Shown in pieces: positions 34,671 to 39,805 of a DNA stretch of 64,000 nt. The notes under the pieces were generated by a model. It saw nothing but the letters and a program-made list of their open reading frames with translations. It searched no databases and was not told the DNA's origin. How positions within the stretch are numbered: position 1 is the first letter of the stretch; every line of letters starts with the position of its first letter. The DNA comes from Ostreococcus lucimarinus (Eukaryota). The stretch lies in the NCBI GenBank assembly GCA_000092065.1, contig CP000581.1; one strand, given 5' to 3'. A program made the position numbers and the translations under genes.

Positions 34671-35488
34671 ACCGCGCGCGCGCGATCTTCCCGCGTCGCT
34701 CCCGCGCAGGCGTCTCTCGGACCGTGTGATTCGCGCGTCGCTCGCGCCTCTCGCCTCTCGCCTCGCGCGCGCGTCTCGGCGCCTCGCGCGGCGCGACGAA
34801 CGCCCGCGCCTTCGTTCGCGCGCCGCGCTCGATCGCCGCGCTCGATCGCCGCGTTCGATCGACGACGCGCGCGTCGATTTGCCGCGCAACACCATTGTTG
34901 GTCCAGAGCAAAAAGAGCGAAATTCGACCGACCGGCGTGTCGGGAAAGACGACGGCGCGCGGCAGAAGACGCCGCCACCATGGTCGCGCGCGGTGCGACG
35001 GTGTGCGTGGGAGCGCGGTGTGGACACGCCTCTTGGCGTGCGCGCGAGAGACGAACGACGAGGTGCGCGCGACTACGACACGAAACGACGAGACGACGAC
35101 GCGCGTGCTGAATTTGAAATTTCAATCGGCGCGCGAGGCTGCGCGACGATGACGCGTTCGGGTTCGCGATCGAGCGGTCGTGGGACGAGACAGGGCGCGA
35201 AAGACTGACGCAGATGCGGTGCCGTGCGGTGATGCCGACCTTAGGCGTGTCGATCGTGGTGGGTGGCTCGACGGCGACGCGAGACTATCGACGCGAGGCG
35301 GACGCGTCGACGCTTCGGTGGCGGAGGGCGAGACGACGTGGCGAGGGGATTCGGGAAGTGATGCGGACGATGGAACGAGCGTGCAGGATGGTAGGGAATG
35401 GTACACGTTTAAGCACGGAGAGAACGTGCGGTGGTTGGTGGAACAGAGTGGGTTAGACTGGGCCACTCTGGAGCAACTGAATCCAGAC

Positions 35489-38400
35489 ATGGATTTGACG
35501 ACGACGTTTCCGGGAGATAGAATTGTTATCCGTGGACCACCGAGTTTAAAGCCGAACGATCGTGTGGTTGCAGCAGTGGTGGCACAACCGACGTCTTCCG
35601 TCGTGGTGACGCCAAGATTATCGACGTGGAGCTCACCCGTCGCATTAGCGGGTGTGCTCATCGTGGGTATCGTCACCGGCGCAGCTTTCGCGGGGAAAAG
35701 GCGGCTATCCACGGTCATCATGGCGCTCACGGGGAACGCGGACCCACAACTCGAGGCAAAAGACAACGAAATTGACGCTCTCAGAGCCCACCTGGATGTC
35801 GCGGAACGTGATCTCACGGACATGCGAGAGAAGTGGCTGAGGAACGAACAGTCGCTGGAAAACTTGCAACAGCTCCTGGAAAGTGCGTCGCGAGCCGACG
35901 CATCTTTGAGAGACCAAATCAGCGTGCTGAAAGAGTCCCTAGACTCAAGAAATAACGATGTCAAACGTCTCGAAAGCTCGAACGCTGAAGCCAATGAGCT
36001 TGCGGAGCAGTACAAAACCAAGCTTAAGAACGCTCAAGGTGAAGTTGACGCGCTGCGGGAAACTGAGAGAAACAGTGCGTCTCAACTTGCCCAAGTCACG
36101 CAGATGACAACGCAGTACGAAGGCGATATTTTGAGTTATAAAAGTAAATTATTGGACATCGAGGCGGAGCTGATGGCTCTCAGAGAGCTCAACGACGGTT
36201 ATTCTGATGAAGCAAATACCTCAAAAGAAAAGTACAAAGAGACACTGAGCGAAATTGCCAAAGTGACAGAGTTGAATGACAAGCTCGAGGCAGAGCTTTC
36301 AAAAACGAACGAACAGGTGATAAATCATCTAAACCAGCTAGCCATTCATAAGCACGACATGGAAAAGCTGGAATTAGAACTCGCGGCTTCTCGCAACGAT
36401 CTGTCAGAGTTGACGGTTGATTTTGAAAGCGCGAATACAAAATTGAGTTCACTTACGTCTGAACTGGAAGATAGCCGATCAGAGGCACTCGCATACTCGA
36501 ATGAGCTTCAAACTGTGAAAACCGACCTCGAGATTTCGATGGACGAACTCGAAACACTCAGAAAAAGTCTTAAAGCTTCGCAAGATCACGTTTCAGAATA
36601 TGAGATCAATCTCTCGGGTTACAAAACAAAGCTCGAAATGGTTCAATCGTCGCTTGAGATATCTCGTAATGAAGCCACAAGCTATCATGATGATCTTACT
36701 TTAAATAAACGTGAACTTGAGGAGGTGCGCGATGGACTTGAGCAGATAACGAGCGAGCTACGAGCTTCAAAGACTGAAAATTCCAGCTTATCTGATGAAC
36801 TCGACTGCTTAAAAAGCGAGCTTGAAATGCTTCAATCACAACTTGCTACTGCGAATGACGAGTCCTCAACACTCTCGATCGATCTTGCAGGGATTAAAAG
36901 TAAGCTCGAAATGGCTGAAAAAGCTCTGGAAGAGTCTCGCAATCAGGCATCTGGGTATAAGGGCGAGCTGGAAGTAGCACGTAATGAGGCTGTACAATTG
37001 TCTAGCGAGCTCATGGGCTTGAAAGTTAAGGTAGACGAGTTGGAGGTAGCGCTCAATGAAACCAGCGGAGAGTCGTCGACTCTTTCCATCGACCTCGCTG
37101 GTTTCAAGAGCAAGCTAGCAATGGTCGAGGAAGCTCTCGAGCAAGCGCGCACGCAGTCCTCTGAGTATGAAGGCGAGCTCGCTCGCGCTCGCGAGGCGCT
37201 CGAGAATGAGGCAAACGAGAAGAGATCCATGGAAGAGAAGTTTTCGAAGATGTGCGAGGAGCTATCTCAGCAGGGCATGCAAGCGTCGGAGGAAGGGGGA
37301 CGCCTAGAGCGCGAGCTCGCTTACACTCGCGAGGCGCTCGAGAATGAGGCAAACGAGAAGAGATCCATGGAGGAGAAGTTTTCAAAGACGTGCGAAGAGT
37401 TATCTCAGCAGGGCATGCAGGCGTCGCAGGAAGTTGATCGCCTGCAAGGTGAGTTGCAAAAGTCTAGAACCGCACTTGATAAAGCTAACGGCGAATCTTC
37501 ACTTCTTTCCATTGACCTCGCTGGTTTCAAGAGCAAGCTAGCAATGGTCGAGGAAGCTCTCGAGCAAGCGCGCATGCAGTCCTCTGAGTATGAAGGCGAG
37601 CTCGCTCGCGCTCGCGAGGCGCTCGAGAATGAGGCAAACGAGAAGAGATCCATGGAAGAGAAGTTTTCGAAGATGTGCGAGGAGCTATCTCAGCAGGGCA
37701 TGCAAGCGTCGGAGGAAGTTGATCGCCTGCAAGGTGAGTTGCAGGCGGCGCAAGCGGCGCTCGATAGCGCGTCGGGCGAGTCGTCGACTCTTTCCATCGA
37801 CCTCACTGGTTTCAAGAGCAAGCTAGCAATGGTCGAGGAAGCTCTCGAGCAAGCGCGCACGCAGTCCTCTGAGTATGAAGGCGAGCTCGCTCGCGCTCGC
37901 GAGGCGCTCGAGAATGAGGCAAACGAGAAGAGATCCATGGAAGAGAAGTTTTCGAAGATGTGCGAGGAGCTATCTCAGCAGGGCATGCAAGCGTCGGAGG
38001 AAGGGGGACGCCTAGAGCGCGAGCTCGCTCGCGCTCGCGAGGCGCTCGAGAATGAGGCAAACGAGAAGAGATCCATGGAAGAGAAGTTTTCGAAGATGTG
38101 CGAGGAGCTATCTCAGCAGGGCATGCAAGCGTCGGAGGAAGTTGATCGCCTGCAAGGTGAGTTGCAGGCGGCGCAAGCGGCGCTCGATAGCGCGGTGCGG
38201 GATTCAACGGAGATTCGCATTTCTGCTGATGGCTACAAGATGAATCTTGAAGCAGCGCAATGCGAGCTTGATGCGTTACGATCGCAAAGCGGTGACACGT
38301 CATCAGACCTTACAGAATATAAGAACAAGGTTGAATCATTGCAGTCCGAGCTTTTGTCTGCCCGTGAGGACTCTATGAAAACAGCAGAGGCTTTATCGCG

Positions 38401-39805
38401 AGAACAAATCAAATTTCAAGGCATGGAGGAAAAGTTGGCAAATATCGTAGCATCGAGCGGGGCAGACAACGTTGAGATTGAAACTTATAAATCACGGCTT
38501 GCGAGCAGTGAATTAGAACTCGAAACTCTTAGGGTGAAAGCAGCGGTAAATGCTGAAGAAGCAGAAAAGTATCAAGTAAATCTCATCGACGCCCGTGAGG
38601 AAGTTGCAAGATTAGCCGATGAAATTGGCGAGTGGAAGAGCAAAGCAGATTCTCTCGAACACCAACTCGGTCAAGTTCAGATGGAGCACCCCGACAAAGA
38701 TGAAGATGCAGAAAAAAATCGTCAGCTTGAGGACGAGTTAGAACTCTTAAAAGAAAAAGTCTCAGCGTCATCGGCTGAAATAGAGTCATACATGGGTAAG
38801 TTGGAGCACGCGGAATCTGAACTTTCAGTGATGCGAGCTGAGATTGAAGGAGGAAAACACGAAAGATCCGAACAAAACCAGGAAGTGATCGCGCGCATGC
38901 AAATTGAAGTTAGTGCAGCAAATGAGCGAGCTGATCGCTATAAGCAGCGTTTGCTTGAGCTCGAGGAAAATATGCAGCTCAAGTTAGAATCCCTTGAGTC
39001 GATTGCTGAATTTTCTGAAACAGAGGAAGTGCGATTGCTGCAGGAACAAATTTCGAGGCTTGAGTCAGAAAACGCCGAGGCGAACTCAATGCTGAAAAAC
39101 ATGGAACAGGATATAGCGAAAATGCGTGTCTCTTCTATCGAGCCTTCTCAGTCTCCAATGTGGCTGATCGAGGAAGAGCGGCGTGACATGGAATTATCTA
39201 TGCTTGAAGCGAGACAAGCAGCACAGCTCTCATTGGCACAAGTGTCGCAGGCGGTAACCAAAATGAGACAACAAGCGCGAGGCGAGCTGGTTTCGCATGC
39301 CATCTCTTGCGAGTTCAAAGTACGCAAAGATGTTGGCGAACATCAATTCCTTTGTTTGGTAGGAAGTTGGCACGAGTGGGATGTACAGACAGCTGATTAC
39401 ATGCAGCGCGGCGCTGATGGTACCTGGCAAGTTGCCATCACGCTCTTTGCAGATGAGGCGTACGAATATAAATACTGTGTTTGCGAGGTAAATGAGCACG
39501 GTCAGCGTGTTCCAATAGAGTGGCAAGTAGGCCACAATCACGGCTTTGCCTTCGATTCAAATCTAATCGTCAATCAGAACATGAAGGCCAAGGCGCAGAT
39601 CCGAGATAAATTTCTCGCGGATCCAGCGCATACCCCAATAATCTTATTTGGGCCAAATGGTGAAAAGTTTGAGACGGGTAGTACGGCGCTGCTCCACAAC
39701 TTCTCGAATCACATCGCTGAAAGTGGATTTGAGAATTTGCGAACGAGTCTTGAGCGTTTAAATGCCATCCTCGCGAAGTCACAGCGTAAAAATCTTGAGG
39801 CGTAG
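35489..39805 (+). CDS. giant coiled-coil protein (>=1440 aa) with internal near-identical tandem repeats and C-terminal CBM20-like starch-binding module; an in-frame upstream extension (35180..35488, no ATG) would add a LysM-like segment before a single hydrophobic helix
   Basis: continuous 4.6-kb ORF, AT-richer than neighbours; heptad-rich E/K/L/S sequence; CBM20-like FKVRKDVGEHQFLCLVGSWHEWDVQTADYMQRGADGTWQVAITLFADEAYEYKYCVCEVNEHGQRVPIEWQVGHNHGF; hydrophobic segment VALAGVLIVGIVTGAAFAG; start codon uncertain (alternatives ATG 35726 or 35828). Confidence 0.65.
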   Translation: MDLTTTFPGDRIVIRGPPSLKPNDRVVAAVVAQPTSSVVVTPRLSTWSSPVALAGVLIVGIVTGAAFAGKRRLSTVIMALTGNADPQLEAKDNEIDALRAHLDVAERDLTDMREKWLRNEQSLENLQQLLESASRADASLRDQISVLKESLDSRNNDVKRLESSNAEANELAEQYKTKLKNAQGEVDALRETERNSASQLAQVTQMTTQYEGDILSYKSKLLDIEAELMALRELNDGYSDEANTSKEKYKETLSEIAKVTELNDKLEAELSKTNEQVINHLNQLAIHKHDMEKLELELAASRNDLSELTVDFESANTKLSSLTSELEDSRSEALAYSNELQTVKTDLEISMDELETLRKSLKASQDHVSEYEINLSGYKTKLEMVQSSLEISRNEATSYHDDLTLNKRELEEVRDGLEQITSELRASKTENSSLSDELDCLKSELEMLQSQLATANDESSTLSIDLAGIKSKLEMAEKALEESRNQASGYKGELEVARNEAVQLSSELMGLKVKVDELEVALNETSGESSTLSIDLAGFKSKLAMVEEALEQARTQSSEYEGELARAREALENEANEKRSMEEKFSKMCEELSQQGMQASEEGGRLERELAYTREALENEANEKRSMEEKFSKTCEELSQQGMQASQEVDRLQGELQKSRTALDKANGESSLLSIDLAGFKSKLAMVEEALEQARMQSSEYEGELARAREALENEANEKRSMEEKFSKMCEELSQQGMQASEEVDRLQGELQAAQAALDSASGESSTLSIDLTGFKSKLAMVEEALEQARTQSSEYEGELARAREALENEANEKRSMEEKFSKMCEELSQQGMQASEEGGRLERELARAREALENEANEKRSMEEKFSKMCEELSQQGMQASEEVDRLQGELQAAQAALDSAVRDSTEIRISADGYKMNLEAAQCELDALRSQSGDTSSDLTEYKNKVESLQSELLSAREDSMKTAEALSREQIKFQGMEEKLANIVASSGADNVEIETYKSRLASSELELETLRVKAAVNAEEAEKYQVNLIDAREEVARLADEIGEWKSKADSLEHQLGQVQMEHPDKDEDAEKNRQLEDELELLKEKVSASSAEIESYMGKLEHAESELSVMRAEIEGGKHERSEQNQEVIARMQIEVSAANERADRYKQRLLELEENMQLKLESLESIAEFSETEEVRLLQEQISRLESENAEANSMLKNMEQDIAKMRVSSIEPSQSPMWLIEEERRDMELSMLEARQAAQLSLAQVSQAVTKMRQQARGELVSHAISCEFKVRKDVGEHQFLCLVGSWHEWDVQTADYMQRGADGTWQVAITLFADEAYEYKYCVCEVNEHGQRVPIEWQVGHNHGFAFDSNLIVNQNMKAKAQIRDKFLADPAHTPIILFGPNGEKFETGSTALLHNFSNHIAESGFENLRTSLERLNAILAKSQRKNLEA
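37060..38210. repeat. in-frame tandem repeat array: ~3 copies of a ~288-nt (96-aa) unit, two of which carry an extra nested 126-nt (42-aa) duplication; copies near-identical at DNA level; older diverged ~70-aa units extend upstream to ~36400
   Basis: repeated peptide ESSTLSIDLAGFKSKLAMVEEALEQARTQSSEYEGELARAREALENEANEKRSMEEKFSKMCEELSQQGMQASEEVDRLQGELQAAQAALDSA; identical spurious antisense ORF peptides (37104..37385, 37405..37653, 37690..37938, 37812..38303) prove nucleotide-level identity. Confidence 0.85.

Follow-up and report, generated by a model that had tools for sequence, protein, structure and literature searches.

This locus raises the question of what protein is encoded by a 4.6-kb open reading frame (ORF) without an ATG at its start, and what role such a protein could play in the cell. 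The ORF lies in a 64,000-nucleotide stretch of the Ostreococcus lucimarinus contig CP000581.1, and this whole stretch is called the window below. The initial annotation described a single ORF for a mostly coiled-coil protein of more than 1400 aa.

Gene structure and coding sequence

The ORF is located at 35180..39805 on the + strand and comprises 1541 codons counted from a GTG. Its frame is open from 35153 and is preceded by a TGA at 35150-52, and the earliest in-frame ATG (35489) falls within the LysM-like stretch described below. At 55% GC, we infer that so long an open frame did not arise by chance. The ORF is exon 2 of a real two-exon gene, and the spliced product has 1547 aa, which bears out the single long ORF of the initial annotation. 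The features of the gene are as follows:

34980..35062, + strand: exon 1, 83 nt, phase-2 end, ATG context gccgccaccATGG
35063..35244, + strand: intron, 182 nt, donor gag/GTGCGCG at 35063, acceptor cttAG/g at 35243-35244
35245..39805, + strand: exon 2, including the stop codon at 39803-39805

Exon 1 codes for MVARGATVCVGARCGHASWRARERRTT(R), a basic and presequence-like N-terminus, and thus supplies the ATG that is absent from the 4.6-kb ORF. The intron has the branch sequence GACTGACG at 35204-35211. With an AG/GTGCG donor and a CTRAC branch, exon 1 was the sole solution in the window that links an upstream ATG to the LysM frame, and exon 1 is predicted to be joined to exon 2 at 35062/35245. 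In addition, exon 1 ends in phase 2 in all five orthologous loci compared, each with the same exon/intron layout, and the O. tauri gene range (4413 nt, 1406-aa product) was recovered with a single phase-2 intron of 192 nt at the corresponding position. The published consensus of Ostreococcus introns outside chromosome 2 has the donor GTGCGTG and the branch GACTGACG (PMC2483917), with which the donor and the branch of the window intron agree. Across the window, the donor-branch-acceptor pattern showed no excess over chance (2 observed, 3.3 expected), so the support for the intron comes from its position and phase and not from the pattern alone. A shorter intron of 34-37 nt, running from an ATG at 35149 to an AG at 35213, was discarded because the five-locus comparison reveals an upstream exon followed by a longer phase-2 intron; the O. 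tauri annotation likewise agrees with this longer intron.

The initial annotation suspected that the upstream in-frame segment without ATG is coding, and it raised a 5′ exon as one option. The five-locus comparison and the splice signals identify this exon as the solution to the absent ATG. Furthermore, the upstream segment is kept in all orthologues, its LysM-like part is 57-73% identical between them, and a strong hydrophobic helix follows, all of which indicates that it is coding.

The gene had also been described as AT-richer and distinct in codon usage from its neighbours, but the comparison with 21 neighbouring ORFs ruled out a compositional or codon-usage outlier. The GAG/(GAG+GAA) proportion was 0.58 in the gene vs 0.53 in the neighbours (P = 0.24), and the corresponding values were 0.56 vs 0.58 for AAG/AAA (P = 0.72) and 0.44 vs 0.54 for GAC/GAT (P = 0.09). 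The GC3 of the gene (0.54) was about 1.4 SD below that of the neighbours (0.617 ± 0.052) and within their range. The low GC of the gene is mainly due to GC2 (0.38), that is, to amino-acid composition. Within the gene, GC3 is a mosaic ranging from 0.36 to 0.71, and its peak lies in the tandem repeats.

Domains of the predicted protein

The predicted protein includes the following parts, all on the + strand:

35396..35536, + strand: putative LysM-like domain, aa 79-125, EWYTFKHGENVRWLVEQSGLDWATLEQLNPDMDLTTTFPGDRIVIRG
35636..35695, + strand: predicted single transmembrane helix, aa 159-178 (PVALAGVLIVGIVTGAAFAG), followed by KRR
35711..39271, + strand: coiled-coil rod, aa 184-1370 (1187 aa)
37169..38161, + strand: in-frame tandem repeat array within the rod, found with TRF, periods 138 and 285 nt
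39302..39613, + strand: CBM20 starch-binding domain, aa 1381-1484
39614..39802, + strand: conserved family-specific C-terminal tail, aa 1485-1547, ADPAHTPIILFGPNGEKFETGSTALL followed by an amphipathic helix

The N-terminus is basic and acid-poor and has no hydrophobic core in the five orthologues, with 9 basic and 1-3 acidic residues among the first 35 aa of each. In the LysM-like region, Pfam LysM (PF01476; curated cut-off 20.9 bits) found no match in the window protein or its fragments, nor in the O. tauri orthologue. The same family matched four of the six orthologue fragments (best E 3.8e-5), and three Bathycoccus-like orthologues reached 20.2-20.4 bits over all 43 positions of the profile, which is below the cut-off. 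When the orthologue profile was compared with the PDB, the best six matches were all LysM proteins, at weak significance (E 0.017-1.1). The N-terminal query retrieved no LysM relatives beyond the orthologues. Thus, the LysM claim of the initial annotation is favored by the orthologues and by the weak PDB-profile matches, and it is weakened by the lack of a Pfam match in the window protein itself; we regard the segment as a probable divergent LysM-like domain at the N-terminal end. The claim of one hydrophobic helix after this stretch was upheld, since the Kyte-Doolittle 19-residue maximum is 2.26 at aa 159-178, compared with 0.73 for the runner-up anywhere in the protein, and the position of the helix is kept across orthologues.

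The rod makes up 77% of the protein and would be about 176 nm long if continuous. It shows a 3.5-residue hydrophobic periodicity (z = 17.3 vs shuffles) and no signal at other periods, it is rich in E, L, S, and A (17% Glu, 12% Leu) with only 4 Pro in 1187 aa, and its Pfam matches are exclusively to coiled-coil families. The heptad periodicity and the scarcity of proline are those of coiled-coil rod proteins. The repeat array within the rod has units of 46 and 95 aa, with about 7 copies of the 46-aa unit, and its GC3 is 0.61-0.71 vs 0.36-0.52 in the flanking rod. Its copy number varies among species and between near-identical assemblies.

For the CBM20 domain, Pfam CBM_20 (PF00686; curated cut-off 23.3 bits) gave 21.4 bits in the whole protein, under the cut-off, and 25.0 bits on the C-terminal 199 aa (E 1.6e-5, profile 3-87/97), a borderline pass. 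Distant members of the family reach 31-47 bits. An AlphaFold model of the C-terminus from a 27-sequence alignment (pLDDT 87.4) has the CBM20 beta-sandwich fold. In the structural comparison of this model, CBM48 structures ranked beneath all CBM20 structures, and the CBM20 of STBD1 was among the best matches; a model built with only 6 orthologues was poor (pLDDT 53.6) and was set aside. These results agree with the C-terminal CBM20-type module noted at the outset. Furthermore, the residues W1406, E1435, K1437, W1454, and N1459 are invariant in 27 members with 24-90% identity. They align to glucoamylase W543, E576, K578, W590, and N595, and the first 72 residues of the glucoamylase sequence used for this were confirmed by a second alignment. 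The CBM20 therefore has an intact predicted glucan-binding site 1. Site 2 is partly kept, as the equivalent of W563 is present and those of Y527 and Y556 are not.

The tail after the CBM20 is 53-72% identical among orthologues and is covered by no Pfam family. It was modelled as a beta-hairpin (pLDDT 84-93) and a helix, and its motif D.W..[DN]P...P[IV].[LM]....G....[GS]ST.L[LM] is retained by distant family members. The tail defines a broader, unnamed algal family.

Orthologues, relatives and known starch proteins

Syntenic orthologues were found in O. tauri and on Bathycoccus-like and other contigs, and at least five other genomes carry intact ones (1047-1406 aa). The gene order, Lipase_3 - gene - ... 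- Sulfotransfer_2 with S6PP, NifU, and BSD upstream, is common to O. tauri and four metagenomic loci, and every genome examined has one gene at the syntenic locus, a count that refers to that locus. The end domains are 57-73% identical among orthologues and the rod is 33-48% identical; as judged from these alignments, the end domains are conserved and the rod is fast-evolving. Thus, the earlier description of the gene as fast-evolving applies to the rod and not to the two end domains. Similarly, "lineage-specific" applies to the full architecture but not to the module of CBM20 and tail, which is common to other algal proteins, including one of Micromonas commoda.

The O. tauri RCC4221 orthologue is an unnamed predicted protein of 1406 aa on chromosome 1 (GCA_000214015.2, CAID01000001.2; L011 2333-6745). 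It adjoins Lipase_3, likewise has two exons and a phase-2 5′ intron, shares the order of parts (LysM-like, transmembrane helix, coiled coil, CBM20, tail), and is 54% identical to the window protein over the first 260 aa. However, its repeat consists of 8 perfect copies of the homologous 46-aa unit, whereas the window has a mixed 46/95-aa array, and it adjoins a guanylate-cyclase gene that the window does not have. No Pfam annotation is recorded for it, and its CBM_20 score (20.6 bits) is under the cut-off. Both end domains fall under the Pfam thresholds in Ostreococcus, and hence the O. tauri orthologue was left unannotated and the architecture was overlooked. In the literature searched, we found no account of a protein uniting LysM, CBM20, and coiled coil; the sole co-mention was in an unrelated preprint on aphid effectors. 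Both observations accord with the earlier remark that such a protein is undescribed.

More distant relatives share part of this architecture. The Micromonas commoda protein XP_002509309.1 ("carbohydrate-binding module family 20 protein") and related algal proteins have a homologous CBM20 and tail after a long coiled coil, with about 27% identity in the module and an insertion of about 30 aa inside the CBM. Their called ORFs are without LysM or transmembrane helix, and they are not syntenic. A second class of about 700 aa (P0099, P0101, P0103) has hydrophobic segments but no LysM; P0101-type proteins were rejected as orthologues because their loci are not syntenic, and are thus paralogues. Some relatives are labelled "chromosome segregation ATPase" in their sources, only because of the coiled coil. 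One relative is encoded on a Micromonas-like contig, at a distance of 2.6 kb from a gene that resembles glucan-water dikinase. In addition, a 99.9%-identical assembly (L006) has a 1-nt insertion that splits the ORF and 423 nt more in the repeat region. If this insertion is genuine, the L006 strain, at least, can do without the gene. An exact search with the window ORF retrieved no record, and L006 and Logan/ENA fragments were the only other sequences of the same species.

Among known starch proteins, PTST1/2/3 of land plants resemble the window protein in being non-enzymatic and in joining a coiled coil to a starch-binding module at the C-terminus. They are much shorter than the window protein. 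They carry CBM48 instead of CBM20, have no membrane anchor or LysM in the descriptions consulted, and work in granule initiation and protein targeting (PMC4339375; bioRxiv 10.1101/2024.10.03.616402). The window protein falls outside the PTST family, which is characterized by a C-terminal CBM48 and a relationship to PTST1-3: Pfam CBM_48 scores 15.4 bits vs 25.0 bits for CBM_20, no sequence relationship to PTST was found, and none of the homologues inspected, one set of which carried no names, was recognisably PTST-like. Moreover, chlorophytes lack SS4, PTST2/3, MFP1, and PII1, and another mechanism is expected in them (bioRxiv 10.1101/2024.10.03.616402).

MFP1, a protein of seed plants only, is comparable as a thylakoid-bound coiled-coil protein that sets granule initiation sites (PMC13167743; bioRxiv 10.1101/2024.10.03.616402). 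This likeness is one of description, and MFP1 has no CBM (it acts via PTST2) and no LysM. It has an N-terminal anchor and a stroma-facing rod. SAGA1, SAGA2, and BSG1 of Chlamydomonas combine CBM20 with long helical or coiled-coil regions; their CBM20 domains bind starch and maltoheptaose, and the proteins organise starch location (PMC13167743, PMC6374437). However, they occur only in Volvocales and have not been described with a transmembrane helix, LysM, or tail, and the CBM20 of BSG1 is N-terminal (aa 72-150) whereas that of the window protein is C-terminal. The SAGA1/SAGA2 family is marked by Rubisco-binding motifs and an N-terminal CBM20, and the window protein lies outside it: the motif, taken as [DN]W[RK]xx[LIVA], is absent from the window protein apart from one loose match, WKSKA.

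A similar arrangement of parts is that of STBD1 (genethonin-1) of animals, in which an N-terminal hydrophobic anchor and a C-terminal CBM20 tether glycogen to membranes. The window protein has the same two ends, but STBD1 is about 360 aa, cytosolic, and ER-linked, has no long coiled coil or LysM, and is 18-22% identical in the CBM only. We read the membrane-anchored combination of LysM-like domain, coiled coil, and CBM20 as a variant on known coiled-coil/starch-binding types.

Proposed role and its alternatives

We tentatively propose, at a little short of an even chance, that this nuclear gene codes for a non-enzymatic protein that is anchored in a membrane and tethers the starch granule. The protein would link a plastid membrane to the granule, analogous in function to MFP1 plus PTST2, SAGA1/2, or STBD1. 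The presequence, to judge from its basic character, would direct the protein to the chloroplast, where its helix would hold it in either the thylakoid membrane or the inner envelope. The topology, predicted with the positive-inside rule only, would place the KRR flank and the rod in the stroma and the LysM-like head on the opposite side. The rod, which at up to about 170 nm is on the scale of the organelle, could place the CBM20 at the one starch granule or at malto-oligosaccharide primers. The protein might thereby set the position or growth site of the granule relative to the membrane, and it might help both halves of a dividing plastid inherit starch. In this way, one polypeptide would merge the functions of Arabidopsis MFP1 (anchor and coiled coil) and PTST2 (coiled coil and CBM). 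In Chlamydomonas, starch is localised by coiled-coil proteins that carry CBM20 (PMC13167743), and in O. tauri the single granule is stretched over the plastid division plane, so that each half inherits a part (PMC1939878).

Against a tether, it is not trivial for an acidic N-terminal part of about 115 aa, with a folded LysM in it, to cross a membrane when no signal peptide is present. In addition, DDL and MURE are all that Ostreococcus and Bathycoccus retain of the peptidoglycan pathway (PMC4815162). Their plastids therefore lack the ligand that LysM classically binds, which leaves the head without an obvious partner and weakens the idea that it binds plastid peptidoglycan. Proteins of the cytosol can carry CBM20 as well, for example DPE2 in plants and STBD1 in animals, which counts against the plastid reading.

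The protein could instead be a structural scaffold for organelle positioning, division, or a cytoskeleton-like function, in which the CBM20-fold domain and the tail make protein-protein contacts and do not bind glucan. The dominance of the rod, the conserved tail without an assigned Pfam family, the partly retained site 2, and the relatives named as segregation ATPases, a name drawn only from the coiled coil, fit this reading. However, the five site-1 contact residues are invariant in a family that is otherwise 24-30% identical, which is hard to account for without sugar binding, and distant members reach 47 bits on Pfam CBM_20; we consider a scaffold unlikely. An STBD1-like glucan tether facing the cytosol would have its helix in the ER, the nuclear envelope, or the outer plastid envelope, and its rod and CBM20 would either hold malto-oligosaccharides or soluble heteroglycan or tag material for turnover. 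The order of anchor and CBM20 matches STBD1, the positive-inside rule places the rod in the cytosol equally well, and plastid targeting is putative. Nevertheless, green-algal starch is stromal, the N-terminus of the five orthologues resembles an organellar presequence rather than a signal peptide, and, to our knowledge, Mamiellales have no cytosolic insoluble glucan, so that this tether seems quite doubtful.

It is improbable that the protein is a surface or endomembrane glycan sensor, with the LysM-like head as the working end for chitin-like, peptidoglycan, viral, or bacterial glycans and the rod as a spacer. Although the plastid peptidoglycan pathway is lost, conservation of the LysM-like segment equals that of the CBM20, which argues that the head must bind something, and LysM with a transmembrane helix is known in eukaryotes, for example in PPASP (PMC4815162). 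But the protein lacks a signal peptide and a kinase or other output domain, and a sensor role would leave the conserved CBM20 with its intact site 1 without explanation. Finally, we give almost no credence to the idea that the gene is decaying or without function, or that the ORF arose in the assembly of a region rich in repeats: the L006 assembly is frameshifted and differs in repeat length, and 6 of the 8 substitutions between the two assemblies are non-synonymous, but the frame is intact across 1547 codons in the window, and the intact syntenic orthologues have strongly conserved end domains.

A more specific form of the plastid starch tether is speculative, and we hold it to be rather unlikely. 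A single polypeptide would couple the plastid membrane mechanically to the only starch granule. Its CBM20 would hold on to the granule, which would thereby be centred at the division plane and shared out between the daughters. The LysM-like head, in the intermembrane or lumenal space, would be a relic of peptidoglycan-linked division machinery that has found a new partner, and the rod would be a spacer or ruler tuned by gain and loss of the 46-aa repeat. Gene targeting is feasible in Ostreococcus. If this form is true, the protein would account for "starch division and partitioning" in Ostreococcus, for which a device has long been sought. That each Ostreococcus cell has one granule, divided with the plastid, has been unexplained since 2004 (bioRxiv 10.1101/2024.10.03.616402; PMC1939878). 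With its membrane anchor, organelle-scale rod, and intact predicted starch-binding site, this conserved syntenic gene is thus a concrete candidate.

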